A DNA stretch of 64,000 nt from a virus (lineage: Duplodnaviria; Caudoviricetes), in IMG/VR virus record IMGVR_UViG_2857375656_000002, positions 1,302-65,301 of that record. One strand, 5' to 3'. Shown here one piece after another: positions 6,770 through 26,444 of this stretch (positions are counted from its first letter, which is position 1; each line of letters starts with the position of its first letter). The notes under the pieces are model-generated. The model was not told the DNA's origin, searched no databases, and was given only the letters and a program-made list of their open reading frames with translations. A program made the position numbers and the translations under genes.

Positions 6770-6780
6770 TTAAACGCTCC

Positions 6781-7623: not shown

Positions 7624-7674
7624 CTTTTACACTCCTTGTAAAACGTCGTTTTTTCCAGTAGCCAAAGGCGAGGA

Positions 7675-8840: not shown

Positions 8841-9832
8841 AGCGTGCGCACCTCCACCTCGACACCCTTGCAATACGGCGCCTGGAACGCGGTGCTGATG
8901 ATTGGCTCCAGCGGCTCAAGGATTTGCAGTTGCGCAGCGCCGGCGCTGTGAATCGCATAATCAATCCAGCTCGGATCCACCCGCCCTTCCAGCCGGTGAC
9001 AAGACTCCGCGTAGTCCTGCAGCAGCTTTTGAGCGGCAACCTGGGTAAGCCCCGAATCCGGGCCAGCGTTGATCTTGGCGACCACGCGGATTTTGTACGG
9101 CAGGATTTGCGCGCCTTGCACACTGACCAGATCCGTCTCCGGCCGTACATCCGGCCGTGCGAAATGGCGACGAACGCCGTCAAGCAAATCGGCAGAAGGC
9201 GTGCCGTCGCCCTCACGGGAAAGCACGGTGACCATCACTTCGCCGGGCGCTGTTCGACGCCCATTGCCGTCTTTGACCTGGGCCGCATAGCCGTCCGGGT
9301 CAAAGGTGTAGCTGACGGTTACCACACCTGGCGTAGCGCTTTGCACCTTCACCGACGGCCGTTCGCCTAGAGTGAAAACCTCACGCCGATACTGCATTCG
9401 CGAACCTGCCGCCGGGGCATGCGGCGCCAGGTAGTAACGCAGGCGAGCGTCGTCATCGCTCTCCAATGTTGGCGGCACAGGCGGAAATGCCGCCGGGTCG
9501 CCAGGGTCGAGTACTTGGCGTTCCAGGCCCATATCGGCCAGGCGTGCATCCAGGTTGCTGCCGGTGGCCCACCACGCCAGCATCTGCTTGATGCGTGCAT
9601 TGTATTTGCGCGCGTGGGTTTGCAGCCGCACACAAAACGCTTCCAGCGCCAGGGTCAGCAGCTCGCTTTCATTGTCGAGGCTGACCTTGAGTTTGGCCGC
9701 ACTTTGCGGCGCTCGGGTGGCGACGTAGTCAACGACAAACGCCTTGAACTCGGCCAACAACGGTTCGAACTCGTCCACCGCAATGATGGCCGGTTCCGCC
9801 AGTTGGTTCTGGCCGGGGATCAGCATGCTCAT
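8837..9832 (-). CDS. Baseplate J-like protein
   Basis: 331 aa, ESDDDARLRYYLAPHAPAAGSRMQY. Confidence 0.9.
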   Translation of the reverse strand: MSMLIPGQNQLAEPAIIAVDEFEPLLAEFKAFVVDYVATRAPQSAAKLKVSLDNESELLTLALEAFCVRLQTHARKYNARIKQMLAWWATGSNLDARLADMGLERQVLDPGDPAAFPPVPPTLESDDDARLRYYLAPHAPAAGSRMQYRREVFTLGERPSVKVQSATPGVVTVSYTFDPDGYAAQVKDGNGRRTAPGEVMVTVLSREGDGTPSADLLDGVRRHFARPDVRPETDLVSVQGAQILPYKIRVVAKINAGPDSGLTQVAAQKLLQDYAESCHRLEGRVDPSWIDYAIHSAGAAQLQILEPLEPIISTAFQAPYCKGVEVEVRTL

Positions 9833-10161
9833 GTCACGACCTCGAAGGTTTGTTGGCGGTTTTTCCAGGTGCCGGCGAAGCGCAACAACAAGCCGGCACC
9901 TTGGCGGGTGGCGACGATGACCTGGGGTTGGAAATCGCCGATGCCGTTCTGCGCGTTATAGAACGCTTGGGCGGCGTGGCTTTGGGCGAGAATCAGCAGG
10001 TCGTCGCCGAGGTTCTGGCCGAGCAGTTGCGGGATCTGCGAGCCGTACAGCGGGCGTTTTTGGCGAGTGCCCACGGGGGTGGTCAGCGCTCGGGTGGCGC
10101 GCTGCACGAATTGCAGCCAGTCATCAACGGCTGCGCCGGTGTTCCTGTCGATTCCGATCAT
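9829..10161 (-). CDS. Baseplate wedge protein (GpW/gp25-like)
   Basis: MIGIDRNTG...ALTTPVGTRQKRPLYGS. Confidence 0.85.
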   Translation of the reverse strand: MIGIDRNTGAAVDDWLQFVQRATRALTTPVGTRQKRPLYGSQIPQLLGQNLGDDLLILAQSHAAQAFYNAQNGIGDFQPQVIVATRQGAGLLLRFAGTWKNRQQTFEVVT

Positions 10162-10170
10162 GCGGTGTCC

Positions 10171-10782
10171 TTATCGGGGGCTGATGACGCGGCCTTGGTG
10201 GTCCACTACGGGGCCGCTGAAGTGTGCGCCGCCGGCATCGAGCAACAGGCGGGTGCCGCCGATTTGCAGGGTGATGCCCTGGGCGCTCATGGTCAGGCTG
10301 GCGGCGCCGACCTTGACGTCGACCTGCTCGCGGGAGCCGGTAAAGGTGGTGGGGCCGTTGACCCAGTTGAACGTGTGGCTGGCGTCGTCGTAATCGCTTT
10401 GAGTGCCGTCCTGATGGCGGCGCCGGGTCAAGCTGGCAACGCTGGAGACCGGCGGAAACTGACTAGTGTTCAGGCCGAACAAGGCCACAGACTGGCCGCC
10501 GCCTTCGCCGCCGCCGTAGTTGAGCAACAGGCATTGTTCGCCCACGGACGGAATGCGCGTTTCAGTCTGTGCACCGGCGCTGGGGTTGAAAAAACGGATG
10601 GCCGGCGTGAGCAACTCACCGTGGCTGACCTTGCAGGTATTGCTGGCGGCGTCGACCTCCTGACACACGCCAATGCGGCAGAAGCTTTCGGCACGCCGGT
10701 AAAGGTCTTCAAGCTGGGTTTCCATTTCCACCAGGCGCTCTACGATCGGCCCCAGTTGCATGCGTAACAGCGCGTCGAACAT
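10171..10782 (-). CDS. Baseplate spike protein V
   Basis: RIPSVGEQCLLL...HDHQ-like metal-binding tip (VVDHQG). Confidence 0.85.
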   Translation of the reverse strand: MFDALLRMQLGPIVERLVEMETQLEDLYRRAESFCRIGVCQEVDAASNTCKVSHGELLTPAIRFFNPSAGAQTETRIPSVGEQCLLLNYGGGEGGGQSVALFGLNTSQFPPVSSVASLTRRRHQDGTQSDYDDASHTFNWVNGPTTFTGSREQVDVKVGAASLTMSAQGITLQIGGTRLLLDAGGAHFSGPVVDHQGRVISPR

Positions 10783-10785
10783 GGG

Positions 10786-11301
10786 CTACTCCGCCAGGGG
10801 TTTGTATTGATCGGGGTCGTTGATGTTCGAGACTTCCCAGGTGCGGGCGAACAGCGGTTGACCTGTGGGATCGGTGAGTAATACAGGTCCCAAGTAAAGG
10901 GTTTGGGTGAAGGAAACGGTCCAGGTGTCGTAGTCCGTTTCCGCCGTGGTGCGCACAGACGGCGCGGCGACGATATTCATCGGCAAATCACACTGTGCCT
11001 GCGGCAGGTTCCAGCGGTTATCCAGCACCAGGTCCATCAGTTGGCTGGCCAGGTCGCACGCATCAAATGGCAATGCCCCGGGCGCAACCATGGCCTTGAG
11101 CGAAAGGGTCAACGCGTGAGCCTTGCGCCCTTCTCGGGAGCGAATGCCGGGGCCATTGCCCTCGACCGTGATCAATACGCCGGTGTTATCCCCGGTGCCG
11201 TTAAAGTCCTGGTGATTGCCGATCTTCAGGTCCGGGAAGGCCGCTTGCAGCGACTCGCCAATGGCGAGGGGCAGTTGAGAGGGCTTTTCGATGAGCATCA
11301 T
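10786..11301 (-). CDS. Tail terminator/completion-like protein
   Basis: YDTWTVSFTQTLYLG motif; first structural gene after holin; start trimmed to 11301. Confidence 0.65.
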   Translation of the reverse strand: MMLIEKPSQLPLAIGESLQAAFPDLKIGNHQDFNGTGDNTGVLITVEGNGPGIRSREGRKAHALTLSLKAMVAPGALPFDACDLASQLMDLVLDNRWNLPQAQCDLPMNIVAAPSVRTTAETDYDTWTVSFTQTLYLGPVLLTDPTGQPLFARTWEVSNINDPDQYKPLAE

Positions 11302-11324
11302 TTTAAGTAGCGTCCTTGCAACAG

Positions 11325-11663
11325 TTACTGCGGGTCCTGACGGGAGTTTTCGTTGATTCCGATGCGCTTGGCCGCCCACCGCTCATACAGGCCGATGGCT
11401 ACATCGGCACCGGCCATGGCAGTCAGGCAACCGATGGCGCCGGCTGTCCAGATCGACATGCCGGCGGCGTAGCACAGCATCAGCGCTGAAACGCCGCACA
11501 CCATGCAGGCCCCGGAGCGCAGGGCCAGACGGCGGATCAGCGACCAACCCCGTGCGCCCTCTTTGTCGGCGCGCCACATTTCACCGGATACCCCGCCGAT
11601 CACTGCCAATACGATGACCAGCCAGATAGGCATTTCCGCTAACGCTTGCTGTTCATTTGTCAT
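11325..11663 (-). CDS. Tailocin holin (LydA-like, 3 TM)
   Basis: MTNEQQALAEMPIWLVIVLAVIGGVSGEMWRADK...; start trimmed to 11663. Confidence 0.85.
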   Translation of the reverse strand: MTNEQQALAEMPIWLVIVLAVIGGVSGEMWRADKEGARGWSLIRRLALRSGACMVCGVSALMLCYAAGMSIWTAGAIGCLTAMAGADVAIGLYERWAAKRIGINENSRQDPQ

Positions 11664-11733
11664 GTCACGCCTCCTGGCTGAGCAATAGATAGTCCGTTTT
11701 TCATTTACAAATGCTTCGATAGGTAGGCATTCC

Positions 11734-11758
11734 AAAAAGCCCGGTCGCCCGGGCTTTT
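11734..11758 (-). terminator. Intrinsic terminator in the tailocin leader, upstream of holin
   Basis: AAAAGCCCGG-GCGA-CCGGGCTTTTT. Confidence 0.7.
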
Positions 11759-11963
11759 CAGTAATGCGGTCCAGATTCGGTCTTTCGGCGCTACTGGCGC
11801 GGTACGGACCTTTCCTCAATGTTTTTCCGACCACGATCCCTGTCTGCCGGATAACTGCTTCTGGTGCTTTACGCTGCACACCCGGGTCAGTTGCCAACCC
11901 TCTGAACCGTTATTAGGCCGGTTCATCGCTGCCTGTTTTTGAAGCGTTGAAACTAAAGAGCGT

Positions 11964-12070
11964 CGGCATCCTTGCCGCTGTTGCCTGGCATCCCTGCCAT
12001 CGCTTCGATGGCGTCCTTGCCGATGTTGCGTGCCGTCCTTGTCACTTTCCTTGGCAGCATCCTTGCCGCC
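11964..12070 (-). repeat. Array of six ANGGA motifs, several in hairpin loops (RsmA/CsrA-site-like)
   Basis: Minus strand CGGCA-AGGA-TGCCG, TGGCA-GGGA-TGCCA, GGC-AAGGAC-GCC plus three further CAAGGA motifs. Confidence 0.65.
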
Positions 12071-12100
12071 TCCACCACCTTGTTGGCTGGCTTGAGACGA

Positions 12101-12129
12101 AGAATATGCATGTATGCATATACAGTCAA
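12101..12129 (-). promoter_or_regulatory. Sigma70-like promoter of tailocin operon overlapped by a near-consensus LexA box (12110-12125)
   Basis: TTGACT-17 nt-TATTCT; CTGTATATGCATACAT is one mismatch from CTGT-N8-ACAG. Confidence 0.55.
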
Positions 12130-12216
12130 TGCACAAATGCATTTATTTTTGCCGTGGAAATGCATGCGTGCATTCGCGGCCTTGCGGGCAGAGGGCTTGG
12201 TGGTTTTCTGCAGGCG

Positions 12217-12243
12217 AAAAAAAGCCCGCGCAATGGCGGGCGT
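12217..12243 (-). terminator. Terminator after prtR-like gene
   Basis: GCCCGC-CATTGC-GCGGGC followed by T7. Confidence 0.7.
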
Positions 12244-12260
12244 TGTCTTACGTAAGGAGG

Positions 12261-12995
12261 TTAACGGGCGTACATGCCCCACCAGAACACATGACCGAGG
12301 ATGCTGATCTGCTCATCCTGGATATCCTGGAAACTGTAGTCCTCGTCCGGGTGTTCATCGCGATTGAAGCTGCGCAAGCGAATCCCGGTAGGCAGGCGGT
12401 AGAGCTGTTTCACCCGTAACTGGCCATTGTGGTTGATGGCATACAAATCGCCATCGACGATATCGCCAATGCCACTCTTGCCTGCGTTCACCCCGACCGT
12501 GGCGCCGTCGCGCAGCACCGGCAACATACTGTTGCCGCGCACCGTCACACACTTGGCCTGGTCGAACTGCACACCGTTATGCCGCAAGCTGCGCTTGCCG
12601 AACCGCAGGCTGGCCTTCTCGCTTTCCTCGATGACGAATCTTCCTGATCCAGCAGCCAATTCAACCTCGCGCAGAAAGGGGATCGACACCTCGTCATCAT
12701 TAACGGGCGTGTCGTCGTCCCACAGGCTTATGTCCTTGAGTTCCGAATGCATCGGGTCGCGCCCGTCATCGCGCAAAGCCCCCGCCGCCGCGCGCCCGCG
12801 CAGGTGGTCGGTGCTGACGCGAAAGTACTCGGCGATGCGCGAGATGTGCTTGTCCGACGGGTCAACGATCTTGCCGCTGAGGATCCGCGAGAGTGTGGAT
12901 TGAGGCACGCCGGTACGCCGGTGAAGCTCCGTGGGGGAGATCCGGTCGCGGTCCAGCAGTTCTCTTAAGACGATAGAAACGTTGCGTTTTTGCAT
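12261..12995 (-). CDS. prtR: PrtR-like XRE/S24 autocleaving repressor of the tailocin
   Basis: N-terminal HTH (GVPQSTLSRILSG), AAG cleavage site, VRGNSM Ser and RVKQL Lys of S24 peptidase. Confidence 0.85.
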   Translation of the reverse strand: MQKRNVSIVLRELLDRDRISPTELHRRTGVPQSTLSRILSGKIVDPSDKHISRIAEYFRVSTDHLRGRAAAGALRDDGRDPMHSELKDISLWDDDTPVNDDEVSIPFLREVELAAGSGRFVIEESEKASLRFGKRSLRHNGVQFDQAKCVTVRGNSMLPVLRDGATVGVNAGKSGIGDIVDGDLYAINHNGQLRVKQLYRLPTGIRLRSFNRDEHPDEDYSFQDIQDEQISILGHVFWWGMYAR

Positions 12996-13037
12996 AACGC
13001 GGATAGTGCCGGGAGTTTTAAGGGTTGGCAAATGCTA

Positions 13038-13058
13038 ATTTGCATAATTTATGCAAAT
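13038..13058. promoter_or_regulatory. Perfect palindrome upstream of prtR-like gene (candidate operator)
   Basis: ATTTGCATAA-T-TTATGCAAAT. Confidence 0.5.
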
Positions 13059-13373
13059 CAGAAAGCTACAGCCAAAATGTCAGTAAACGATGGGGGACTG
13101 GACACTCATCAACTTCAAAGTCTGAGAGGCTGTTATCAGCCAAAAGCAGTCATTCATCTGACCTTCAAACAAGGGGTATTTATACGGAGAACGACAATCG
13201 AGAAATTATGAGGCACCGGCGGTCGGACTCGTCTCAAGCACCGCTCTGGAAGGCCGATACCACAGGTGTTAATTTGCGCGGCTCCGGCCACGAACCGGAA
13301 CCGCAGACAGGGATGTTTGGACGTCTTTCACGCCCAACCAGGCGTGCCTAATTTCTGTCATGAGTATCATCCG

Positions 13374-14996
13374 ATGCTGCAAAGATCCCTAAGAACCCAA
13401 ATCCTCGCGCTGCTGAGCGGCAGCCTGTTGGCGATGTTGCTGATTGCTTTGGCATGCTTTCATTTCCTGTCCAGCGGGGTGCAAAACTACGCCAACCTAA
13501 TCGAAGGTCCGCTGCACACGTCGCAATTGATCGACGAAGCCAACCTGCAATTCAAGGTGCAGGTACAGGAATGGAAAAACGTATTACTACGGGGCAAGCA
13601 GCCGGCAGACCTGGATAAATATTGGAAGCAATTCGAAGAACGTCAGCGCGACGTGCAGGGGATCCTCGGCGAATTGGCTAACCAAAATGGCCTGGACGGC
13701 CAACTCAAGGCCCGCATCGAACGCCTGCGTGACGAACACCGTCAGCTGGGAAGCGCTTACCAGAAAGGTCGCGATGCCTATATCGCCGCGGGTGCAGACC
13801 CCACTGCTGGCGACGCCGCCGTTAAAGGCGTCGACCGTGCTACCAGCGACCAGATGAGCGAACTTGTCGGCGAACTGCGCAAACAGGGCACCGAGCAATC
13901 GACGCTGATCAGCGCTGCTGCAAAACGCACGGTGATGCTGGGGATTATCGTAATGCTCACCTCGGGTCTGTTGATCGGCCTGTTGAGCCTGTGGCTCATC
14001 AACCGCAACTTGGTTGACCCCATCCGCAAGCTGATCGACTACGTGGCGCAACTGAGCCAAGGCAAACTGACCGAACGCGTGGTCAGTAGCCGTGAAGACG
14101 AGTTGGGCAAACTGGCCATGGCCGCCAACACCTTGCGCGACTTTCTCGCCGAAACCTTCAACCGCTTGCAGCGCAGCGCCAAGGATCTGGACAGCGCAAG
14201 TGGCGAGTTAAACGCCATCGCCGGTCTCATGGCCAGCGGTACCAACGAGCAGTTCAACCGTACCGATCAGGTGGCTACGGCGATGAACGAAATGTCCGCC
14301 ACCGCCCAGGAAGTGGCTCGTCACGCAGCCGATGCCGCACGCGCTGCCGATGATGCCGACCAATCCGCGCAGCAGGGCGAAAAAGTCATGCGGGGCACCA
14401 TTCACACCATCACCCAAATGCGTGGCGAGATCGCCAACACAGCCACGGTGATCCGTCGCCTGGAAACCGACAGTGGCCGCATCGGCAAGGTGCTGGAAGT
14501 GATACGCGGCATCGCCGAACAGACTAATTTGCTGGCGCTGAACGCGGCGATCGAAGCGGCCCGCGCCGGTGAAGCCGGACGCGGTTTTGCGGTCGTGGCC
14601 GACGAAGTGCGAAGCCTGGCCCAGCGCACAGCGGCGTCGATCATCGAAATCAACCAGATCATCCAAACGGTGCAAACCGGCGCGGTGGACGCGGCTCAGG
14701 CGATTGAAAGTGGCCAGTCGCGCAGTGAAGAAAGTGTCGCGCAAGTGAATGAGGCCGGCGCCATGCTGGAGCGCATCACCCATGCCGTGGAAGCCATTCG
14801 CGACATGAACCGCCAGATTGCCACCGCCGCCGAAGAGCAAACCTCGGTGGCGGAAGACATCTCGCGCAACCTCACCGAAATCACCACGATTGCCAGCACC
14901 AACCTGGACAACATGCAGCGCACCGAAGCGGCAAGCCGCAACCTTCACGGGTTGTCAGGGCAGTTGAATGAAGTGACGGCACGCCTGAGTGCTTAG
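13374..14996 (+). CDS. Methyl-accepting chemotaxis protein (4HB sensor, HAMP, MA domain)
   Basis: Two TM segments, [47 protein letters not shown]. Confidence 0.95.
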
Positions 14997-15633
14997 CCGG
15001 ACCGTTAGCGGTTAGATCGGCTTCAGGCTGAGCAGTGTTGGAAGACCGAGCCCCGTATTTCATAGCCTTACACGGGGCAATGCTCAGACCAAAGACTCTC
15101 AGCATTTGCGTGACCTTGCGGCGGTGATACCTAATCGACGAAACGTAGGCTTTTTTTGCGGGCACGCTGGACAGCTTTTTTGCCAGGCTCTTTTGGCAGC
15201 AACTGCGTTAGATCCGATAATCGCGTCTCCGCTTTTTCGAGCGCGTTGATTGAGTAGCGCTGCCAAACCTTTTCAACTGGCCACAGGTCATGTTCAGTCG
15301 ACCTCTCGCGACGGGCATCTTTTGTCCGTTTCCACTTGATCAGTCGATTGATCGGTAGTGGCCTAAAGCTGCTTTCACCTTTAAGCCACTGACCAGGGCT
15401 CTTATCTTCAGGTGATCATTGGCGGGGCGTATCCCCCCGCATAGGCCCGCTGGCAACTGGCAAAGCAAAGAGGCCCCTCTTTTCCCAGTTGCACCCACCC
15501 CAGCACCACGCTACCCTCCTTCCCGTCGCTGCCAATTCAGCGACCGGGCCTGAGAACCCGGCAAGATGCAGGCGCACCAAGCGCCCCCAAACCCGATTTG
15601 CAGGCGTTTTTTTTCGCCTCACAATTCGTGCAA

Positions 15634-15710
15634 TGGCGGCTGTGCGTGGGAGACCTTCGGGTCTGCCGGGTTCCTGTATCTCCGGTTTCTCAGCCTGCGC
15701 ACAGCTGCCA
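15634..15710 (+). ncRNA. C4 antisense-like RNA
   Basis: Closing stem TGGCGGCTGTGCG/CGCACAGCTGCCA, AGACC-TTCG-GGTCT hairpin; loops complementary to CTGAGAACCCGG at 15550-15561 and GCCTGAGAAC at 15718-15727. Confidence 0.65.
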
Positions 15711-15765
15711 CCCATTCGCCTGAGAACGAACGTGGTAGCTCTCCACTGATATGGGAGTTTTACCG

Positions 15766-16047
15766 ATGACCGCTACAGATCCGTCTGCGTTAACCACCCT
15801 CGGCGTCACCCCCTTCTCCTTTCATTCCGACCAACCGCTATTCCGTGTCAACAGCGGTGTTTCCCTGCACGAAGCCTTGCACCATGCCTCCGACCTCCTC
15901 CATGTCGCCAAGCAGCTCGCAGAAGATGCGGCGATGACCAGGGAGACGGACCGTTACGCCTGGGCGTCGCATTACTTGCAGGAGATGGTGAAAGCGGTGG
16001 TTGATGATGCAGTGAAGGTGTTGGATTCGCCCGGCAACATTCAGTAA
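15766..16047 (+). CDS. DUF3077-like small protein
   Basis: TTLGVTPFS...LFRVNSGVSLHEALHHASDLLHVAKQLA. Confidence 0.75.
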   Translation: MTATDPSALTTLGVTPFSFHSDQPLFRVNSGVSLHEALHHASDLLHVAKQLAEDAAMTRETDRYAWASHYLQEMVKAVVDDAVKVLDSPGNIQ

Positions 16048-16058
16048 GGGGCAACCGT

Positions 16059-16099
16059 AAAAAAGGGCGGCGCTTTATATAAAGGCACCGCCCTTTTTT
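16059..16099. terminator. Bidirectional intrinsic terminator
   Basis: AAAAAAGGGCGG...CCGCCCTTTTTT. Confidence 0.7.
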
Positions 16100-16422
16100 G
16101 TGTTTTACCTGGCCGTTTGCGACCTGCGAAGGGCCGACTTCACGTGTTAACCTTGCGCCCATCGCAACAAATGCTGGGCCAAGCGCCCAATGCCGTTTAG
16201 TTAAGCGCCCCCGATTGGGCACGATGTTGAGCTTTCGAACTTCAGCGATGCAGGGGCTGCGGCCTGCAGGTACAGCGCGGCGATCCCTTCGCAGCCTCGC
16301 TAAGGCTCGACAGCTCCCACATTCGGCCTGCGTCGTTTGGAAGCCTGCGCTGCGCAACTGATCGACACTGGACCACGCGCGCCCTTTGCCCCATCACTTT
16401 CAACGAATTTGCCTACTATCCA

Positions 16423-16476
16423 ATGAGTAAAAACACGTCCGATCTGTCTTCCCACACGCCGATGATGCAGCAGTAT
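16423..16476 (+). pseudogene. mutS: mutS 5' fragment (18 codons) cut off by prophage integration
   Basis: MSKNTSDLSSHTPMMQQY matches the MutS N-terminal HTPMMQQY motif; similarity stops after the Tyr codon and the frame ends at TAA 16531-16533. Confidence 0.88.
16455..16475. other. Left prophage attachment junction (core extent approximate)
   Basis: Host sequence ends at ...ATGATGCAGCAGTA; TGTCTAA/TTAGACA motifs at 16527 and 16594 may be arm sites; partner att is outside the window. Confidence 0.55.
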
Positions 16477-16629
16477 GGGCTGCGTTGGTTTGCAGGCCGT
16501 GAAATCCGCGGGATTGATAGCTTTTCTGTCTAAAACTCTAACGGTAGATAGCGCGTTTTTCGATCAATGAATACGGGGTAAGCTAAGGTAGTATTAGACA
16601 CAGGTTAAATCAACGGAATGAGGTGCTCC

Positions 16630-16869
16630 ATGGGGTGGAACAGTCACGTAGATCATGAGTTTCACAGCGATATCCAGGACTTGGTAGATGAGGGGCTTCT
16701 GGAAGAGGGGTCTAGAGAGCACGGCATTGCACTTTTTGCTTGCGATAATGGATACGAAAATTTGTCACCCGCACAAAAATCCGTCTTTGATCGGTTCGTA
16801 CTGCCTTCCTTGAAGCGCCGCAAGCAGCAGTTGGAGATTCAGCGGATCATCGACTCCAACCCAGAGTAA
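16630..16869 (+). CDS. Hypothetical protein (79 aa)
   Basis: GAGGTG RBS; MGWNSHVDHEFHSDIQDLVDEGLLEEGSREHGIALF... Confidence 0.7.
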   Translation: MGWNSHVDHEFHSDIQDLVDEGLLEEGSREHGIALFACDNGYENLSPAQKSVFDRFVLPSLKRRKQQLEIQRIIDSNPE

Positions 16870-17019
16870 TGACCCTAACGTATGCCCGGCAAGTTTGCAG
16901 GGCGGTCAGTTTTTGTTCAGGGCCAGCCTGCTGGCTACGTCGCTTTACAGGCCCGTAATTGGCCCGTCCTGCCGATCGAACACAAACCCAAAAACTCAGA
17001 ACAAAAGCGGGCTGCCTTT

Positions 17020-17274
17020 TCAGGCTTGGCCAACTTCCTCCAGCGCAGCATCCCCTCGAAGTCTGACCTCTTCTTTTATCTCCGCAATGAGCCTGGCAAT
17101 TGCGCGACTTGATCCCAACGTTTTTGGATCAACCCCGGCGACCGTCAACAATTCCTGCTGAGTCATAGGGTCGATCAGCTGAATGTTGAGTGAGTCATAC
17201 CTGATCGAGCACACGCACCTGGTGGGAAGGAACGTCGTCTCAATTATATGGCGTAACTCTAAGGTAGAGATCAT
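17020..17274 (-). CDS. DUF1652-like protein
   Basis: MISTLELRHIIETTFLPTRCVCS...SSRAIARLIAEIKEE. Confidence 0.75.
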   Translation of the reverse strand: MISTLELRHIIETTFLPTRCVCSIRYDSLNIQLIDPMTQQELLTVAGVDPKTLGSSRAIARLIAEIKEEVRLRGDAALEEVGQA

Positions 17275-17501
17275 CACGTGACCCTTTAAAACCAATGGAT
17301 AGAGGCCTTTCGGCGCGGCGATGTGGCTTAGGGAACCTAAATGTAAAAACGTTCAAGTTAGTACATGTTAGTTTGATTTTTGAGACGTGGTTCACGCATC
17401 GTAGCCACCCTGGCAGCCGCCGGTCGCATGGCCATGGAGCTTAGAAGGCAAAAGCATAGTTCGCCTGCTGCTACGCTGTTCACTCCACCAGAGGTACGCC
17501 A

Positions 17502-17711
17502 ATGCCCAATTCAGACCTGCTCCCTTCCCTGCTCTCCAAACTGTACGAAAACCAGTTGGCCCTTGAGGCTTCCATCATGGAGCTATCGAACTGGGTAGAG
17601 CAACGTGGCTCCGCCGATGTAGCCGAGAACGTGCGCGGCGCTCTCCACACCATTGATGAGAACGAGGAGTTCATCAAGCTGACTCTGGCGGTCCTCATGT
17701 CGCCCGAGTGA
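17502..17711 (+). CDS. Small Pseudomonas prophage protein
   Basis: MPNSDLLPSLLSKLYENQLALEASIMELSNWVEQRGS. Confidence 0.75.
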   Translation: MPNSDLLPSLLSKLYENQLALEASIMELSNWVEQRGSADVAENVRGALHTIDENEEFIKLTLAVLMSPE

Positions 17712-17736
17712 AGTTGATCTGGCGCTGAGCGCATCA

Positions 17737-18696
17737 CTACTTGCAAGCAACCGACCACAGCTGATCGAGCTTCGTGGTGTAGCTCTGGCTCATCATTTCC
17801 CGGCGCATTCCCCAGTCGGGGTTCGTCGGCACACTGGCCGACCGCAGCGTTCCCCTTCCCCACCGGTCGTTGATCTGGTCCAGCACGGTCATCACTCGGG
17901 TGGCCTCGGCCGGCTGAGACACCGCGAATAGATCGTCCGTGTATTCGCCTGGCTGGCACAGGTTGAGCAACATCACCTCGGCCTTGCTGTATTTGAAGCC
18001 TGGGCGAAAAATCCGATCAAGGGCATCGACTGCGGCCTTGGTCAGCAGGCGCACGTCATCAGTCGGATACGGCATATCCACCACTACCCCACTGGCATAC
18101 TTGGCCTCCTCCGGATTGAACATGCCCGTTCGGATGCAGACACGGACCTTTTTGCAGAGCGAGTTCTGCGCCCGGAGCTTTTCCGAGGCTCGCATCATGT
18201 AGGTGGCCACCGCCTCCTTGATCGGCGGCAGCTCGGTCAGGCGCTTTCCGAACATCCGGCTGCAGCAGATTTCCTGCTTGGGTGGGTCGGGCTCGTCCAG
18301 CTCGAGGCATGACGTGCCGGCCAGCTCCCGCGCAGTCTTCTCGATCACCACGCTGAATTTCTTGCGGAGCGTCCAGGGGTCGGCCTTGGCCAAATCCATC
18401 GCTGTCTTGATGCCCATCGTGTCCAGGTGAAGTTTCATCTTTCTGCCAACACCCCACACCTCCGAAACGTCGGTGTTGCGCAATACCCAGTCACGCTTTA
18501 CCGGGTCGGTGATATTCACTACACCACCGGTCTGGGCCTGCAAGCGCTTCGCTGTATGGTTGGCCAGCTTGGCCAGGGTCTTCGTGTGGGCCATTCCGAC
18601 GCCCACCGGGATTCCGGTGCACTGAAAGACCCGTGCGCGGATCTGGCGCCCGAGCACATCCAGGCCGGCAATACCGGTCAGGTCGGCGAAGGCCTC
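17737..18696 (-). pseudogene. umuC: rulB/umuC Y-family DNA polymerase V, 3' part (starts at catalytic Glu)
   Basis: EAFADLTG...GIPVGVGMAHTKTLAKLAN...VWGVGRK...MMSQSYTT; N-terminus missing. Confidence 0.9.
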
Positions 18697-18921
18697 ATAA
18701 ATGTAAAGAAAAGATGTCAACCCATGGACATGAGTGGAAGCGGCGCTAACTCTAGTTTTTCGCTGAATAAACCGTGTCCATAGATATCCACCTATGGAGT
18801 GCTTTCAGAGTCTAATTTGTCCATACCGAAATCTGCGGTCGACTGCGAACAGCAACTCTTCTGGCCTGATGGAATCATTCATGACAGGCAGCTATGAGCC
18901 AGCCGCGCGGTGGCCGGTGGC

Positions 18922-19160
18922 AACTCGGTGCATGGCGTGAAGCGAGCTAGGATTCAAACTATCCAAGGCAAGACCCGGGCCCTAGATGGTCACTAGGCCT
19001 AGGCGATGCTTGATGCGCTGGATAATACGTCGGTGAGAGGGCTACGTGATGGGGCGATTCTAGCCGTGTTGCTAGGCCTGCGCCGCGAAGAAGCTGCTCA
19101 ACAGCACGTCAATCACATGGTAGAACGCAGAGGCATCCGGCACCTAACGGTCCAGGGCAA
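18922..19160 (+). pseudogene. XerD-like tyrosine recombinase remnant
   Basis: NSVHGVKRARIQTIQGKTRALDGH*A*AMLDALDNTSVRGLRDGAILAVLLGLRREE...ERRGIRHLTVQGK, two in-frame stops, truncated. Confidence 0.75.
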
Positions 19161-19233
19161 GGACCGCATGGTGATGCCTGATCGAGATAGAAAGTCTTGC
19201 GAAACTCCCGCAGGCAGTACACGTACTGTCAAA

Positions 19234-21021
19234 TTAATTCTCGTTAATGGATGTGGTAAAGTCGAAGCGTCCTGATCTGATTTCATCTCGAAAATTGTCG
19301 CCGTATTTCTGTTCCCAAAACTTGATGTAGGGCGTCAGAACCATTCGCAACACCAGCCACCACAGCATGACCGCTGCATCACCCTTGAAGACGTGGGCAG
19401 GCACGTATCCATGGGACAGGTGGTTGCGCATGTCCCCATACACTTTATCCAATAGAATAGCCCGTAAATTTCCGAGTAGCGGCGCCCCCAGATCAGCAAT
19501 CAGCAACTCTTCATCGAGCAGGGCCTTTAGGCCGTCTCGCTCCTGAGAGTTGTCCGGGTATCGCTTTGAAGGCTCCTTCTCGAACTGCTTTAAGCGATAA
19601 CGCAGGGAGTTCTCTAACTGGGGGATGAGATAATGGACTGCCGAAAGGTAATCGCCATTTAGTCCCGCCACCAGACCACGCGAAAAGAACTCCTGATGAC
19701 CATCCGGTACTAGCGGGTTTCTCGCCAAGAAAGAGTCCAAGATCTCCTCATGAAAATAATATTTGCTCGCAATACCGTCCAAGGCGGGCAGGATTCTGGC
19801 ATTGACCTCTAATGTATGATCGTTCCGTAGGCTCTGCATAGCCCAGTCATGGGCGGTATCTGCTTGCGCGTCCTCGCCTTCGGCAGCACTTGGCGTAACC
19901 GCGACTGTCATCCCCTCATGGTCGATATGAATCCCACCGAAATCAGCCAACAATGGATCCAAGCTCGATCCGACAGTATCTTTTAAGGTTTCAAGATCAG
20001 AAGGTTTTGATATGGCAAAAGCGAGTCGGAAGATCGAGTCATACACGTCTGTCCCTTCAGTAACCTTTTCTGCATGCTCGGCATATTCACGCAGACTTCC
20101 GAATGAATGAGAGAAAAGCCCCATCTCATGTTGGATATCACGTTGTGCCTCTCTCAATTCCTTGTAGAGTTCGTCTCGCTTAGACCGCGTACCCGGTATG
20201 CGCTCTAGGGCTTCGATGGCCTGCATGTAGCAGGACGCGGCGATAGAACCTTTATGCACCCGCGCTTCCGCTTCGTGGCACTCGGCAATTAGCTGGAGGA
20301 TTTGATGGGAGCGTGGTTTGTCCCCATGACAGCTTTTGAGTGATGTCTCGAGAACTGAAACTGCAATCCGATACTGTTTACTATCAAAGAAATGTCGATG
20401 TGTTTCGAGCGCCTTGGCATAGAGGAAATCATCATCTTTTATACGGTATTCCCAGCAAAGCCTCAGCAGATTGACGTCAGAGCGCAACAGTTCGTCCGAA
20501 GCTAAAAGCTCATTCATGTAATCATATACAGCGCTACGGTCTGTCAATTGTCGTAGCGAAGCAACGAGCATTAGCGCGCGCTCAACCCTGGCAAATGCGG
20601 GAAAGTTTCGTCCGGCCTCAAACAGTCGCTTGGCAGACTGTATGTATGCGCTGACAGCAATCTTTGGCTGCTCCTTGTCACGCACTTCCAGCCATACCAA
20701 ATCGCTGAGTCGAGCCCGCAACTCATGGTTTTTGATAAGAGGAGTGGCATTAGCGAGCGCTTGCATTGCCTTGCTATTGAAGTCGCCGATACGCGCGCTT
20801 GTCTCTCGCTCGGTACGCCATAGGGGCCTGAAGGGGACCCTCTTGTCACTAGGGTGCAGCATCATCGTTGCCGCGCACTGTAAGACGAACGCGGCAGGCT
20901 CACCTGCGAAATCAGCCAGCTTGACAGCCAGATCATGGCATTCGAGGATGTTCTCTGCCTCGAATCCTGTGAAGAACCGCTCGAACTCCTCCGAAGTTAC
21001 TTCCTGTTGCTTCAAATCCAT
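19234..21021 (-). CDS. DUF4209-type HEPN protein (595 aa)
   Basis: AGGAGG RBS; C-terminal HYLIPQLENSLR and RNHLSH (Rx4H) HEPN motif. Confidence 0.75.
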   Translation of the reverse strand: MDLKQQEVTSEEFERFFTGFEAENILECHDLAVKLADFAGEPAAFVLQCAATMMLHPSDKRVPFRPLWRTERETSARIGDFNSKAMQALANATPLIKNHELRARLSDLVWLEVRDKEQPKIAVSAYIQSAKRLFEAGRNFPAFARVERALMLVASLRQLTDRSAVYDYMNELLASDELLRSDVNLLRLCWEYRIKDDDFLYAKALETHRHFFDSKQYRIAVSVLETSLKSCHGDKPRSHQILQLIAECHEAEARVHKGSIAASCYMQAIEALERIPGTRSKRDELYKELREAQRDIQHEMGLFSHSFGSLREYAEHAEKVTEGTDVYDSIFRLAFAISKPSDLETLKDTVGSSLDPLLADFGGIHIDHEGMTVAVTPSAAEGEDAQADTAHDWAMQSLRNDHTLEVNARILPALDGIASKYYFHEEILDSFLARNPLVPDGHQEFFSRGLVAGLNGDYLSAVHYLIPQLENSLRYRLKQFEKEPSKRYPDNSQERDGLKALLDEELLIADLGAPLLGNLRAILLDKVYGDMRNHLSHGYVPAHVFKGDAAVMLWWLVLRMVLTPYIKFWEQKYGDNFRDEIRSGRFDFTTSINEN

Positions 21022-21065
21022 ATTTCCTCCTAGGCAAGAACGATATCTCGGCCATTTGCTCAAAA

Positions 21066-21287
21066 CTAACCGAACTGAAGTTGCTTGATGCGCTGGTAGT
21101 CTCGTAAAAATATCTCATGTAGCCTTGGGCCTTTCCTTCCTGGAGAAGGGCCAGTCGTGTACACCCACGACTGCCACCTCAAAGCTTCCTCGACCCGCGC
21201 GGATCCAATGAAATTATATTTGACGCAGGCATGCGGACTGAAATGAATATGTTCAACGGTAGCCAAGGGATATCTCTGTAAGAGCAA
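21066..21287 (-). CDS. Possible small ORF or gene remnant inside the element
   Basis: ORF upstream of DUF4209 gene; no recognised motif. Confidence 0.3.
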   Translation of the reverse strand: MLLQRYPLATVEHIHFSPHACVKYNFIGSARVEEALRWQSWVYTTGPSPGRKGPRLHEIFLRDYQRIKQLQFG

Positions 21288-21348
21288 GCGTCAATGTCCA
21301 TGGGCGCCCTATCTAGCTTTGGGCGTCCATAGTATGCAACTTATTCTT

Positions 21349-21408
21349 ATCAATGCTGTAGATCTCGACGGCGGGCACCAGGCGCTCGATCACCGTCATG
21401 ACCCGCTC
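21349..21408 (-). pseudogene. umuC: rulB/umuC internal fragment (20 codons up to catalytic Asp)
   Basis: ERVMTVIERLVPAVEIYSID. Confidence 0.85.
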
Positions 21409-21409
21409 A

Positions 21410-21490
21410 AAAGCCCGCTGGCACCTGGAACGAGCACAGGGGCAATTTGACGCCACCGGCACCTATCGGGCCCAAAATATTGAAGCCCAT
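21410..21490 (-). pseudogene. umuD: rulA/umuD 5' fragment (27 codons) joined to rulB by deletion
   Basis: MGFNILGPIGAGGVKLPLCSFQVPAGF then TGA at 21409-21407. Confidence 0.82.
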
Positions 21491-21511
21491 GCCGCGCGCC
21501 CTTTACAAAAT

Positions 21512-21527
21512 CTGTATGAATGTACAG
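21512..21527. promoter_or_regulatory. LexA (SOS) box of the rulAB promoter
   Basis: CTGT-ATGAATGT-ACAG, 21 bp upstream of the rulA ATG. Confidence 0.85.
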
Positions 21528-21730
21528 TTAACATCGGGCCGGGCGCGCGATCAATTTCGTGTAAGAGATATCTGACAAGCGGGGCAGGTTGCCCCGGGTC
21601 GTCTGCATATGCGACGCCAGCGCCAGGGGTTCATCGACGCCTGGGCCCGCGAGTAACGTAGAAAATCCAAAGGGAGCTCCCATTCAGCTGTGTTAGTTTG
21701 GAGGGATACACCGTTTAAAGAGTTGGCCCA

Positions 21731-22330
21731 ATGAGCACCCCAGATCCCAGAAGCATCGCGATGGCAGACGCATTTACGGCGATAGTCCAATCCTTAAAGG
21801 GTGAGTCAGATAGAGGAACGATAGTTTTGGCTGCTGCTTGGCTAGATGACTCACTGACAAAGATATTACGTGTTTATTTCAATACCTCTCCGTCCGAGAA
21901 GAACAGCATTTTTTCACCAGGCCAAGCCATTGGTGATTTTGGAACAAAGATAAAGATTGCGGCAAAGTTGAATCTAATAAACAGTCACATCGAAGATTCT
22001 CTTTCAATATGTAGAAAATTGCGCAACGAATTTGCTCACCTTGCGAGCGAGTTATCATTCCAAACGCCTAGCGTAAAGAGCAAGATTGAGAATCTTTTCC
22101 AGCTGAATCACAGCATCATCGATGCCATGGGTGAGACATTCGATGAACTGATGAATGCTGCTGACGAAGCAGGCAAAGCCTCTATCAAGACCATGCGTGA
22201 TCAACTCGGCGCGAAAGAGCTATTTCGCTTTTTGTGTGGCTCCCTAAGTAGTGGCTTGGCCGGATTGGAATTCGGACTTAAGGCTAGCGCCCCTGATTAC
22301 GACTTAGAGTTATTGGCTGATATTGAATAA
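21731..22330 (+). CDS. MltR-like HEPN protein
   Basis: ESDRGTIVLAAAWLD...GTKIKIAAKLNLI...RKLRNEFAH (Rx4H). Confidence 0.75.
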   Translation: MSTPDPRSIAMADAFTAIVQSLKGESDRGTIVLAAAWLDDSLTKILRVYFNTSPSEKNSIFSPGQAIGDFGTKIKIAAKLNLINSHIEDSLSICRKLRNEFAHLASELSFQTPSVKSKIENLFQLNHSIIDAMGETFDELMNAADEAGKASIKTMRDQLGAKELFRFLCGSLSSGLAGLEFGLKASAPDYDLELLADIE

Positions 22331-22420
22331 TTAACAGTTTTGGTGGTTTGATCACGCCCATTCGTACCTCGGGCGTTAACACTGATCAGAATCAAACTTC
22401 ACCGATTGGTGGTTCGCCCG

Positions 22421-23173
22421 CTAGCCAGCAGCTTCGGGTTGCTCAGTTTCCAGCAGTTCCCCTTCAACTTGCTCAGGTTCGACCGGCTGCTCGCCCGCCG
22501 CATCAAGCTGCTCGGCCTCGGCTATTTCCTGTGCCTGACGTTGCATCTCTGCCTGGTGTTGAATTTGGCGCCAGCGCGAGATCTGCCGGTCAACCGCCTG
22601 GTCGTAATCAGCCGCAGACATCTTGTGCTGTGGGAAGTCCTGTACGGCATCCCATGCGCTCTGGTCGAGCCGTAGCACGTCGCGGTGCATGGTGTAGCGG
22701 AGCTGGTCGTGCAGAATGGACTGAACAACGCCAGGAAACACATCAGGAGCAGCATCCTTCGGCAGGCCGATCAGCTTCATTGAGGCGTCAAATGCAGCTG
22801 CCTTTGCGGTGAGTGGCGTCTGGACGTCCTGCAGCGTTCGGCAATTTTGGACCGACTGATCCACCATCGCGCGCAGCGATATGCAGTCAATCTGGGCGCC
22901 CTTGAGTCGTTCACTGCTGTCGCTCAGCAACTTGACCAGGGTCTCGTAAACATGGATCACCGCCTTGCTGGGCGCTTTTGCCGCAGTAGAGCGACACGCG
23001 GGACACTCGCCGTCCTGGCGCTGCCCGGCGGGGCCGAACCAGCCACAACCGCATGAACAGAGCACCTGGCCGTCCAACGGCAGCGGGTTCAGCGCGCGGA
23101 TTGGCTCTCGCTCACCTGGTTTCAGGCGGTCTGAATCAGTGAAAAGTGTCGGATCTGGAGATTTTCCAGGCAT
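22421..23173 (-). CDS. Hypothetical protein with Zn-ribbon-like motif
   Basis: CSCGCGW...CPAC; acidic C-terminal tail. Confidence 0.6.
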   Translation of the reverse strand: MPGKSPDPTLFTDSDRLKPGEREPIRALNPLPLDGQVLCSCGCGWFGPAGQRQDGECPACRSTAAKAPSKAVIHVYETLVKLLSDSSERLKGAQIDCISLRAMVDQSVQNCRTLQDVQTPLTAKAAAFDASMKLIGLPKDAAPDVFPGVVQSILHDQLRYTMHRDVLRLDQSAWDAVQDFPQHKMSAADYDQAVDRQISRWRQIQHQAEMQRQAQEIAEAEQLDAAGEQPVEPEQVEGELLETEQPEAAG

Positions 23174-23249
23174 CTGGAGTACCTACTGGGTGGGGCCTCA
23201 CGGCCGGATTAAGTGGGGTGCGGCCCCTTTGCCAGCGGGCCGCTTTCGA

Positions 23250-26200
23250 TCAACTGGCGAGCTGGTCCCGGTCCTGGGCCAGCTTGGCCAGCTCCTGCTT
23301 CTTGCGTTCGGCGCTCATTCCTCCGAGGCGTACCGCTGCCATTTTGGCATTGATGGACTTCACAGTTGGCTTCGAAGCCGCGGCTGCCAGCGGCTTGGCG
23401 GTGTCGCCAGCCTTGAGCCAGGCCTTGAACTCCGGCATTTTCATCTCGGTGACGTCGCCCACGCTCCAGTCCTTGTCGAAGTTTGACTTGTAGGCTTTGA
23501 TCGCCGCCGTCTGGCTGGTGTAACCCAGCATGACCTTGTGCTCATCAAACTTGCCTGAGCCTTGGTCTTTCTGGTCCACGACGAACACACGCTGACTGAA
23601 AGGCTCAGGACCGACGTACACGTCAACCTGGTCGCCATCAGCACCGGTGGTGCGCTTGATGTAGCCGTAATGGTCGGACATGGAATGCGACCACTCCTTG
23701 CCGTTCGCATCGACGCCTTTCCGCTCAGAACCGCGTGGGTTTTCGATGGCGATGTTCAGCCCCTGCAGCTTGATATGCCCCTTGCGATAGTTGCCCGCTT
23801 CCTTCTGGGCAGTACTCGGTTCAGGCAGATCGTTATCCGGAGAGGTAGCGGCACTTCGAGCAGCGAGGTCCAGCGCTTTGGCAGGGGGCAAGGCGGCTTG
23901 ATCGTCACCAGCCTCCGGCAGAACGTCACCGGGCTTGGCGCCATCCTTGTCGCCATATTGCTCCGCCTGGTCCTCGTGCAGCTTTTCAGCGTACGCATTA
24001 GCGCTCTCGGGGTTCTTGAACATACCGAGGTGCTTGCCGGTGCGCTGATAAGTCTGGATCGCCTCGTCGTCCGACATGATCCTGCCGTCATCGCTTACTG
24101 TGGGAATGAGCACTTCCTTGCCATCGATGCCGATCGACATTGATCGAACGGTGCTGATCGAGCCGTCTGCGTTCCTGACCGTGGGCCTGGCGTTCAAATC
24201 AATGTTGCCCGCAGTGATTTGCCCTGGCACAGGTGCTGGGGAGGTGCGATCAGCCCCTTGAATACCAGCAGCGACTGACGCGCGCGACGCCTCGGGCGGG
24301 GTTGGTTGTTGTTCCGACTCATCGCCTCCCAGGGCTGAAATAACAGCACCCGGTGCAGCTATTTGCGACGGTGCCTCGATCGCGGGCATCGGCTGAACGT
24401 CTTGAGCCTTCGCAGCAACTTCGGGCTTGAGCAGGCGCTCAGCTACAGCGTCATCCGAACGAGCGTGCAATCGATCACGGGTGCCTTTGTAGCCAGCCGC
24501 GATAGTCTTGCCGGTCAACGCCAAGAACCGCCCGCCCATAAGATCAGCAAGCGCTCCGCCCGCCCTTTCCACCGCTCCGCTTTCATCATCAACTTCGGCC
24601 ATTCGCCGAGCGGTAGCGCTATTACCGGTTGCTCGCTGGCGGAGAGCAGTCGACGCCACTTCCTGATCGAGCAAGGTGTTCCAGCGGTCCCGCGCAGCCT
24701 TATTCGGCAACATTGCGCCGATTTTCTCGCGCATGTTCCGTGAGTTGAGATCTCGAACAACATCCGAATAGGTGCTGGTCTTGCTGCCCATTTTGCCGAT
24801 CACAGACGAAACCGCGCCGGTCGCGAAGCCTTCTCGGTCGGCAGGCGACATTCTACGGAACGTGTCTGCGAACTCCTCGGGACTCATTTTTTGATTGAAG
24901 ATCAGATCGCGCCCTTTCTCCGTTGCCCCCATATAGCTGGAGTCGTCAGACCAGACTTTCCGCGCTTTGGAATAGGTGGGGCTGTGCTCATCCATGATGC
25001 CGAGCAGCTTGTTTTTGATGTTGATGATGTCGCCTGCCCGGCCCTTCTCCCCCGACCGCATGAACGCGCCAATCTGGTCATCGAGGTTTTTCTTCATGAT
25101 GTCCAGGTCGCCGGTGCTGGGCACATCCTTGACGGTGAACGTTCCATCGTCGGCCAATTCTACAAACTTCCCGTAGAACGGGCGGCCTTGGTTTCCAGCG
25201 CGCGTCTTAGCATCACGGAATGCCGTCTGCATAGCCGGGCGGGCCATTAACTCCTCAAGCTCCTTGGTCCAGGGCACCGGTTCTTTGTAAGCCTGCTCGT
25301 ATAAGGGCGCGGCCGCTTTGGCGCGCTCTTTCATCGTATCTTCAAGGGCACGGTAGGCACTCCGGCGCTGTTCTGGTGTGCCGCCGGCGGCCATATCGTC
25401 GGCGACCTTCGACATCGCATCGCCCTCACGCGAGCCCGGTGCAGGCGGCTGCCAAATAGTCATCTCCTTGGAATCGGACATAGCCACCGGTTTGTCACGG
25501 CCACGACCTGCGCCGGTCAGCCTGTAGAGTTGCTCAGCTACGCGATCAGGTTGAGCTGCCTGGCGTTCATTCAGCGCAGGGATGATCTTGGTGCGCCCAG
25601 CACCTGGCGTATTCGCTACACGCTCCAGAAGGCCTGCTACGTTCTCGCCCCCAGCGTCGACGGGCAGAGCGGCCGGGTTTTCTTCACGCATGGCCTGAAC
25701 CCGACGCTGCCACTCCTCAAGGCTAATGCCGTCTCGCTCAAGCGCGCGCTGAAGTTGACGGTTTGCCGAGTTCTCTGATGAAGTCAGCGCACGCTTGACG
25801 GCGCCGGCGGCTACTGCTGCCACAGGTAAAGCACCGCCTACAACACCCCCGAGTGCCGCCCCTTCCACTGCGCTAGGAATGCGGTCAGCGAGATCCCCCT
25901 GGCCTGATCCCAGGCCATACAACCCGCCGTAAGCCGAACCGGTGGCTGCCGACCGACCAATAACTTGCGCGGTCGTGGGAGCTGCCGCTGCCGAAGCGCG
26001 AGCCGCCAGGCCTGGCAAGGCAGTGGTACCGCCGCTGGCAAGCATTGGAACAACACCACCGACTAATCCGCCGCCGATATTTGCAACCGGATGCTGGTCG
26101 CGTGAGGCCGCATCAAGGTTGCGCTCGCCCGCGACGTTCTGGTCATATCGCTCCCGCCAGGTCTTGCCTGGGTTGCCGGTACCGATCAATGGCTCCAGGG

Positions 26201-26444
26201 TTGCCGCAAGGCCGCCGGAAATTTCGTCAGCAAAACCGAAGGTCAGGCCGTCATTCAGGCCTCGCAAGCCCGCCCGAAAAGCGCCGACCTCTGGTGCTGC
26301 TGGCTTCTTTGGTGCGTCCGCGGCGGGCGCGCTCATCTTGGCCATCTGGGAGAACACTTCTTGAGCCTGCTCCGGGGTGGCTCCATCGGGCATCTCGAAA
26401 CGAGCAATACGGCCGTCCGGCATCTCAAACTTTGCGATTGGCAT
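23250..26444 (-). CDS. Large ejection/internal virion polyvalent protein (1064 aa) with C-terminal InPase-like domain
   Basis: [11 protein letters not shown] start, Gly/Ala TM-like segments, then GNYRKGH...IENPRGS...HYGYI...[12 protein letters not shown]...FDEHKVMLG. Confidence 0.75.

Follow-up and report, generated by a model that had tools for sequence, protein, structure and literature searches.

A decayed island at the SIDE codons of a phage-borne rulB gene retains an intact HEPN-type cargo gene

The interrupted rulB gene

The locus described here is a split rulB gene, which encodes a Y-family polymerase, together with the 2.65-kb element that interrupts it. The gene lies in a 64,000-nucleotide stretch of viral DNA (Duplodnaviria; Caudoviricetes), positions 1,302 to 65,301 of the IMG/VR provirus record IMGVR_UViG_2857375656_000002. 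This whole stretch is called the window, and coordinates refer to it unless another sequence is named. RulB residues were numbered after P0007, an intact 425-aa RulB/UmuC protein of a related prophage, and the intact rulAB operon of L006, also a related prophage, was used as the reference for DNA alignment. On the minus strand, the upstream part of rulB ends in ...VEIYSID with the GAT codon at 21351-21349, which is followed by AAGAATAAG, and the downstream part opens with EAFADLTG at 18696, preceded by ...ACATTTAT. Residues 87-106 of P0007 were aligned by tblastn to 21408-21349 and residues 107-425 to 18696-17740 (91% identity), which places the split at Asp106/Glu107. At the DNA level, 21409-21346 corresponded to L006 10258-10321, and 18703-17750 corresponded to L006 10312-11265. 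Because both flanks overlapped on the same 10 bases (L006 10312-10321), the rulB flanks are collinear, and the interruption comprises 2,652 bp (18697-21348).

The left junction reads TACAGCATTGAT/AAGAATAAG and the right junction CTTTACATTTAT/GAGGCC; the uninterrupted site of L006 is TACAGCATTGATGAGGCC. An earlier sequence-only reading of this DNA had ended rulB at 21349, resumed it at 18696 and quoted the junctions as GATAAG and TATGAGG. The P0007 and L006 alignments bore out both positions and the collinear rejoining of the flanks, and the quoted junctions were correct. The split had also been placed exactly between the Asp and Glu codons. The flank homology does end there, but the crossover lies somewhere within a shared 10-nt core, CATCGAT(A/G)AG.

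The upstream piece, found by tblastn with P0007, is a stub of codons 87-106 (ERVMTVIERLVPAVEIYSID; 21349-21408, minus strand) with 95% nucleotide identity to L006 10258-10321. The downstream piece, 'rulB (17737-18696, minus strand), contains codons 107-425 and the stop codon. It can be called as a 327-aa open reading frame (ORF) from a TTG codon at 18720 in the island end, the same ORF being annotated in Pseudomonas sp. G1002 (P0001), and it is without the N-terminal catalytic part of the polymerase. A complete Y-family IMS catalytic domain, with its N-terminal Asp and the Asp-Glu pair of SIDE, was not found, residues 87-106 and 107-425 being separated. RulB residues 1-86 and rulA codons 28-141 were found nowhere in the whole record.

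The upstream gene rulA is likewise truncated. A LexA-box-like palindrome of its promoter (CTGTACATTCATACAG; CTG-N10-CAG match) is located at 21512-21527 on the minus strand, at the same place upstream of rulA as in L006 and in the intact relative L008 described below. It is followed by rulA' (21407-21490, minus strand), which consists of the first 27 codons of RulA/UmuD (translation MGFNILGP...VPAGF) and then a TGA codon created by a deletion junction. The identity of rulA' to RulA residues 1-27 was 74% (tblastn), and that of window 21616-21410 to the L006 rulA promoter and first 27 rulA codons was 73%. The missing part amounts to 594 bp of L006 (9664-10257), that is, rulA codons 28-141 and rulB codons 1-86. 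The decay of rulAB thus exceeds that of the earlier reading, since the 5' piece of rulB is merely a 60-nt stub.

Intact relatives and the lost recombination genes

The cargo gene of the element (19234-21021, minus strand) is intact and encodes a 595-aa protein. A relative of this protein with 99% identity was found on two assembled contigs, L008 and L009. On both contigs, an SRAP gene on the opposite strand is followed by rulA (141 aa) and rulB' (116 aa). Four genes, encoding 430, 578, 673 and 148 aa, come next, and after them lie the cargo gene, a reverse ORF of 89 aa and 'rulB (327 aa). The four genes before the cargo are co-directional; three are tyrosine-recombinase-like, and one is small. 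Window 21408-21230 corresponded to L008 4226-4404, and window 21231-17468 corresponded to L008 9791-13531. Because these alignments skip L008 4405-9790, it may be concluded that about 5.4 kb, nearly the whole four-gene block, was lost by one internal deletion. The deletion junction, ...CAGTCCGCATG/CCTGCGTCAAAT..., lies at 21231/21230, and its sole microhomology is TG. A search of the record with tblastn revealed no other copy of the four recombination genes.

Both ends of the island are preserved. The left end (21231-21348, minus strand) is 83% identical to L008 4286-4404 and near-identical to the left end of another relative, L024. Within it are CCCATGGACAT (21294-21304), which is one conserved arm of an inverted repeat, and codons 1-12 of the first recombinase gene (21266-21231). 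Next to it, the last approximately 16 codons and the stop codon of a ginD-like fourth gene remain (21179-21230, minus strand), as identified by alignment to L008 9791-9843 and by tblastn with GinD residues 131-148. The right end (18697-18906, minus strand) bears the second arm, ATGTCCATGGG (18721-18731). Its last ~35 nt are conserved (attR alignment of six loci), and 158 nt of this end are common to the plasmid locus L004.

The surviving pieces of genes 1 and 4 are out of frame with each other. The true gene-1 frame opens at a TTG codon at 21266 and enters the gene-4 remnant out of frame, and the conserved ATGGACAT at 21301 does not code for protein and is repeated in inverted orientation at the right end. 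A 40-aa ORF at 21301-21179 was considered as an in-frame fusion of genes 1 and 4 and was rejected as an accident of the deletion junction.

The sequence-only reading had proposed a site-specific island in a phage-borne rulAB that lost its recombinases and kept one cargo gene, and the comparison with L008 and L009 supports this proposal. It had connected the loss with a XerD-like remnant inside the element. A tyrosine-recombinase fragment is indeed present (18907-19161, plus strand, antisense to rulB), but it is not the recombinase of the island. Plasmid pPNP1 (L003) encodes a recombinase of 320 aa, and the fragment aligns with residues 108-194 of this protein at 64% identity (tblastn, E 3e-29), with two in-frame stops and a 2-codon gap; the region that would bear the catalytic His-x-x-Arg and the Tyr is missing. 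Compared by tblastn with the recombinases of the island itself, GinA, GinB and GinC, the fragment gave no match. The same fragment, as an 89-aa ORF, also lies beside the full four-gene module of the intact copy L009 and is therefore old debris on the cargo side. The remnant therefore matches an unrelated recombinase, an outcome that had been named in advance as refuting; the argument built on it fails, and the idea of an island survives on better evidence.

The recombinase-like genes were examined further. Gene 1 matched Pfam Phage_integrase (PF00589) with E 2e-7 and gene 2 with E 1e-3; genes 3 and 4 had no Pfam match. In the product of gene 3, R320, H472xxR475, H499 and Y507/508 were invariant across ten relatives. 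Its AlphaFold2 (AF2) model had a predicted local distance difference test score (pLDDT) of 64, and Cre recombinase was the top Foldseek match, although a weak one (E 0.02). Gene 3 and gene 1 showed no significant similarity in an hhalign comparison, searches of PDB profiles with the products of genes 3 and 4 returned nothing, and no NCBIfam model matched any island protein or the cargo.

A common target site in rulB

The target was compared across 32 loci found with gene 1 in species-representative genomes and six IMG/VR contigs found with the left junction. All four genes are present in the intact relatives L008, L009, L014 and L018-L045. RulB residues 1-106 lie directly upstream in most of these loci, although this segment is only 43-93% identical to P0007, and the boundary ...GAT/AAGA(A/G)TAAGTT recurred in 29 loci whose rulB genes are very divergent. 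The SIDE codons were conserved even between rulB/umuC alleles that are less than 50% identical over the N-terminal segment. The attL core of the window, CATTGATAAG (21346-21355, minus strand), is the left copy of an imperfect direct repeat and conforms to this boundary. The attR core, CATTTATGAG (18694-18703, minus strand), differs by two substitutions from the family consensus CATCGATGAG. The right end reads ATGTCCATGGGTTGACATCTTTCCTTTACATCGAT/GAG, with small variations, in six loci. Comparison of the left and right ends indicates that the core CATCGAT(A/G)AG is common to the element and its target. The island contains an 11-nt inverted repeat (CCCATGGACAT; I6), 45 nt in from the left end and 25 nt in from the right, and the core ATGGACAT of this repeat was kept in 29 of 29 left ends.

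Only one record of the phage collection, a metagenomic 'Bacteriophage sp.', contains the first recombinase of the island, and no isolated phage does. Exact-pattern scans of IMG/VR and of the Joint Genome Institute (JGI) metagenomes found neither the right end nor the deletion junction; the mini form is therefore known only from the window and G1002.

Some other records deserve mention. The metagenomic 'Bacteriophage sp.' record MT836836.1 of the phage collection opens (117-1076) with only RulB residues 105-423, and its start possibly represents a further right junction of this island family. Contigs L027, L049, L050 and L035, which are labelled Streptomyces hayashii, Streptomyces hilarionis or Planctomycetaceae metagenome-assembled genome, contain Pseudomonas-type island genes. 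The protein identities of L027 are the same as those of the Pseudomonas loci L026 and L028, and the contigs with these labels are probably the result of contamination or mis-binning.

The cargo gene and its promoter

The cargo protein contains DUF7380 (E 5e-24) and DUF4209 (28.6 bits; cut-off 22.3), the latter being classed as a HEPN domain (PMC3710099). It matched the PADLOC candidate system PDC-S39 (PDLC05011) with E 1.2e-89 over residues 46-567. The RNxxxH (Rx4H) motif, with R532 and H537, is among 20 positions that are invariant in 15 homologues, down to 21% identity. The AF2 model is helical (pLDDT 84), and its fold matches are tetratricopeptide-repeat (TPR)-type proteins. No close relatives of the cargo protein were found in species-representative genomes.

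A relative with 79% identity was found in P. syringae pv. dysoxyli, where it lies outside rulB, beside an Xre-like gene and a gene for a 1677-aa NERD/UvrD protein. Approximately 65 nt of the window (21124-21059) are homologous to the 3' end of the Xre-like gene that precedes this homologue (L007 9896-9961), and from this similarity the cargo gene may once have been part of a two-gene module with an Xre-like gene.

The cargo ATG (21021) lies about 490 bp downstream of the rulA promoter and its LexA box, and it is preceded by AGGAGG at a distance of 5 nt. No minus-strand terminator was predicted in 17400-22500, hence none between the promoter and the cargo. Because the LexA box is retained and no terminator is predicted, SOS read-through into the cargo is plausible, and the cargo could plausibly be transcribed from the SOS promoter after DNA damage.

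The cargo of sister islands is variable and includes Gabija (L024), PDC-S06 (L032 and relatives), chromate, arsenic and transporter genes, or a complete rulAB. In Pseudomonas tremae, L024 contains a complete Gabija pair at 13878-18166 (GajA, E 1e-253; GajB, E 6e-216). A 955-aa PDC-S06 candidate is the cargo in L032, L034, L035, L036 and L043 (15562-18429). The first cargo after the fourth gene in L030, L031 and L045 (~15580-17370 each) is a complete rulA and a full-length rulB, the latter ~72% identical to P0007; judging by their gene content, these islands would resupply the gene that their insertion breaks.

Genomic setting

The window begins with a tailocin-like tail cluster and a PrtR-like repressor (1-13031). 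At about 16423-16476, on the plus strand, 18 codons of the MutS N-terminus (MSKNTSDLSSHTPMMQQY) are found, followed by a sudden end. A Pfam search found no MutS_V domain in the record, because only these 18 MutS codons are present. The abrupt stop is consistent with a prophage attachment site inside mutS. Phage genes are located between the MutS fragment and an integrase at 62987-64000, including those for a portal, DnaB, a CI-like repressor, Rha and an InPase-domain ejection protein, and the rulB remnant is ~1.3 kb inward of the left prophage end. Of the nesting that the sequence-only reading had proposed, mutS, then prophage, then rulB island, the outer level has the prophage abutting the MutS N-terminus in its favour, but this level depends on 18 codons only.

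Back-to-back with the rulA promoter, at 21731-22330 on the plus strand, there is a 199-aa gene of low GC content (43-47%) whose product has the motif RNEFAH (Rx4H) and matches HEPN/AbiC weakly; L006 has a 320-aa gene and the SRAP gene at this place. With this Rx4H gene beside the rulA promoter, two HEPN-type genes flank one SOS-regulated region.

Origin and history of the remnant

The locus very probably arose from a GInt/ILE-type island (ILE, integron-like element) that integrated in phage rulB and then decayed by two deletions, leaving the cargo. Such an island would have entered rulB of a temperate Pseudomonas phage by site-specific recombination, presumably via the 10-nt core CATCGAT-R-AG, which spans the Ile-Asp-Glu codons of the SIDE motif. 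A later deletion of 5.4 kb would have removed the four recombination genes and kept both island ends, and a second later deletion of 594 bp would have taken away rulB codons 1-86 together with most of rulA. The product would be the present 2.65-kb remnant, in which the only intact gene encodes a PDC-S39 helical-repeat/HEPN protein about 490 bp behind the LexA-box rulA promoter. Of this account, the layout of the locus, the structure of its parent, the target site of the family and the identity of the cargo are shown by the sequence comparisons. Since the four genes are gone and the attR core has two substitutions, the remnant should be immobile. The cargo is inferred to be an RNase-type defence or abortive-infection effector that the phage has kept.

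Several points weigh against this explanation. L008 is not the direct parent, as its left end matches at only 86% and its cargo at 99%. The recombinase nature of the third gene, as judged from its model and conserved residues, is weakly supported. The island family can be called GInt-like by architecture only. Approximately 100 nt upstream of the cargo travel with it in the unrelated P. syringae locus, and the cargo may therefore use its own upstream region. Finally, PDC-S39 is only a candidate system, and no experimental report on it was found.

The remnant need not have decayed in the phage in which it now lies. The same decayed arrangement was found in Pseudomonas sp. G1002 (L005), with one difference in 2.65 kb and no amino-acid change in the cargo. 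The two sequences are near-identical from ~18281 to 26400 and then diverge sharply on both sides; within 'rulB, window 18281-17752 differs from L005 by ~15%, with a ratio of nonsynonymous to synonymous polymorphism (pN/pS) of 0.05. The sharp switch of identity inside 'rulB indicates a breakpoint of homologous recombination, and from this pattern the dead 'rulB fragment seems to provide the homology through which phages exchange DNA. It is thus a serious possibility, which we hold with somewhat less than balanced confidence, that the decayed block came ready-made by homologous recombination between phages, the homology arms being a structural gene and the 3' piece of rulB. However, this concerns the spread of the block and not its nature, and the deletions must still have arisen once in some phage-borne rulAB.

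A cargo with a function other than defence, or one decaying like its neighbours, is unlikely. PDC-S39 is merely a predicted candidate, and other members of the family carry chromate, arsenic, transporter or rulAB cargo. Nevertheless, the 595-codon frame is intact and all 20 of the 20 family-invariant residues are kept, while the adjacent genes are pseudogenes. In addition, the closest homologue outside an island lies beside the giant NERD/UvrD-type helicase, and sister islands carry Gabija and PDC-S06.

It is very improbable that the remnant is a non-autonomous mini-island that can still move with the four recombination proteins supplied by an intact relative sharing its cell. In favour of this, the two ends are retained together with their conserved inverted-repeat arms, and intact relatives are common in Pseudomonas. 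Moreover, the window and L008 are 99% identical in the cargo part, 86% at the left end and 80-85% in the rulB flanks, so this cargo island has been present in more than one rulB allele and more than one phage. However, the attR core has two substitutions relative to the consensus, no recombinase module occurs elsewhere in the record, and no exact copy of the deletion junction was found in the viral collection or the JGI metagenomes. The remnant is also found in one flank context only, G1002 having an identical left flank and an identical first 416 nt of 'rulB. An unrelated rearrangement that fell at SIDE by chance, for which only the decayed state of the locus speaks, is refuted by the survey, in which 29 loci have the identical boundary and left end and six have the right end, with the imperfect 10-nt repeat.

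Beyond the insertion and decay of one island, a wider scheme can be proposed tentatively, with rather low confidence. A distinct GInt-like family would home to the SIDE codons of any rulB/umuC, borrow the LexA promoter and often bring along Gabija, PDC-S06 or PDC-S39 as defence cargo; the phage lineage described here would have shed the recombinase module, and the HEPN effector would have become an SOS-wired defence or abortive-infection cassette owned by the phage. Targeting of invariant catalytic codons may explain entry into very divergent alleles on phages, plasmids and chromosomes. The locus also illustrates a route by which a temperate phage may obtain a candidate defence gene, namely, entry of an island into an accessory operon followed by loss of the mobility genes. 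An SOS promoter before a HEPN protein suggests a testable hypothesis of damage-triggered defence.

Comparison with known island systems

According to the description by Bardaji et al. (2017, PMC5385486), a GInt contains a four-gene operon, its cargo begins after ginD, and it is bounded by imperfect repeats of 10-17 nt. The repeats of a GInt are hybrids of attB and attI, and excision as a circle, for which all four genes are needed, is a further mark of the class. The intact relatives share with these elements four co-directional 5' genes, cargo straight after the fourth gene and a short 3' end, as well as imperfect direct repeats of ~10 nt, high target specificity and very variable cargo. Thus, in L008 the fourth gene ends at 9843, the cargo starts at 10001 and the right end is ~35 nt long, and in the window the imperfect direct repeats are the two att cores (21355-21346 and 18703-18694). 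The targets described in PMC5385486 include an ABC transporter, ssb and ribonucleotide reductase; here the target is the SIDE codons of rulB/umuC. The window copy differs further in having lost the defining operon, only 12 gene-1 and ~16 gene-4 codons being left of a ginABCD-like arrangement.

The ILEs of Rhodes et al. (2014, PMC4542609) occur in rulB of pWW0 and of P. fluorescens-group chromosomes, 123 bp into pWW0 rulB. In the pWW0 sequence examined, positions 6488-6490 are the Asp codon of LSNSDG, approximately codon 41; the insertion point of the published ILEs can be written SNND/G. These ILEs and the present family have in common the rulB target, three recombinases and a small ORF followed by variable cargo, GAT at the junction, and an orientation co-directional with rulAB, downstream of the LexA-box promoter. 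Read-through logic of the SOS type has been proposed for ILE integrases behind rulAB promoters (PMC4542609). However, the Rhodes ILEs start with CTGAGGG, whereas the SID/E family starts with AAGA(A/G)TAAG, ~200 bp further into rulB, and the window junction is ATTGAT/AAGAATAAG at Asp106. L041 contains an island of the Rhodes type. Its junction is AATAACGAT/CTGAGGG (AACGAT/CTGAGGG), behind which lie four genes (388, 550, 623 and 145 aa); the first recombinase is only ~25% identical to that of the SID/E family. The earlier statement that integron-like elements insert site-specifically into rulB therefore applies in that this is a rulB island of that kind, but the published site is LSNSDG, and the family is different. 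The L041 locus of Pseudomonas khavaziana (4130-21267) is a single rulAB locus with both families; the Rhodes-type ILE follows rulB codon 40 (GAT/CTGAGGG), and a SID/E-family island lies further on, behind additional rulB fragments.

The effector-carrying rulB elements of P. syringae plasmids (pDC3000A) resemble both in that rulB is broken by recombinase genes followed by cargo. They differ in having two recombinase genes (336 and 713 aa) and in splitting rulB near codon 80, a third site. Taken together, these junctions indicate that at least three sites in rulB, close to codons 41, 80 and 106/107, are each specific to one family.

With the PDC-S39 and C6orf70-type (DUF4209) HEPN proteins (Anantharaman et al., 2013, PMC3710099), the cargo shares a full-length match to the model, the Rx4H motif and a helical-repeat N-terminal part; it differs in being phage-borne and behind an SOS promoter. 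The feature of the window is a decayed member of a known island class, formed by a known process, and not a new kind of system. The novelty lies in the distinct target site, which a sizeable family has in common, and in the clear instance of a phage that has kept the cargo of an island.

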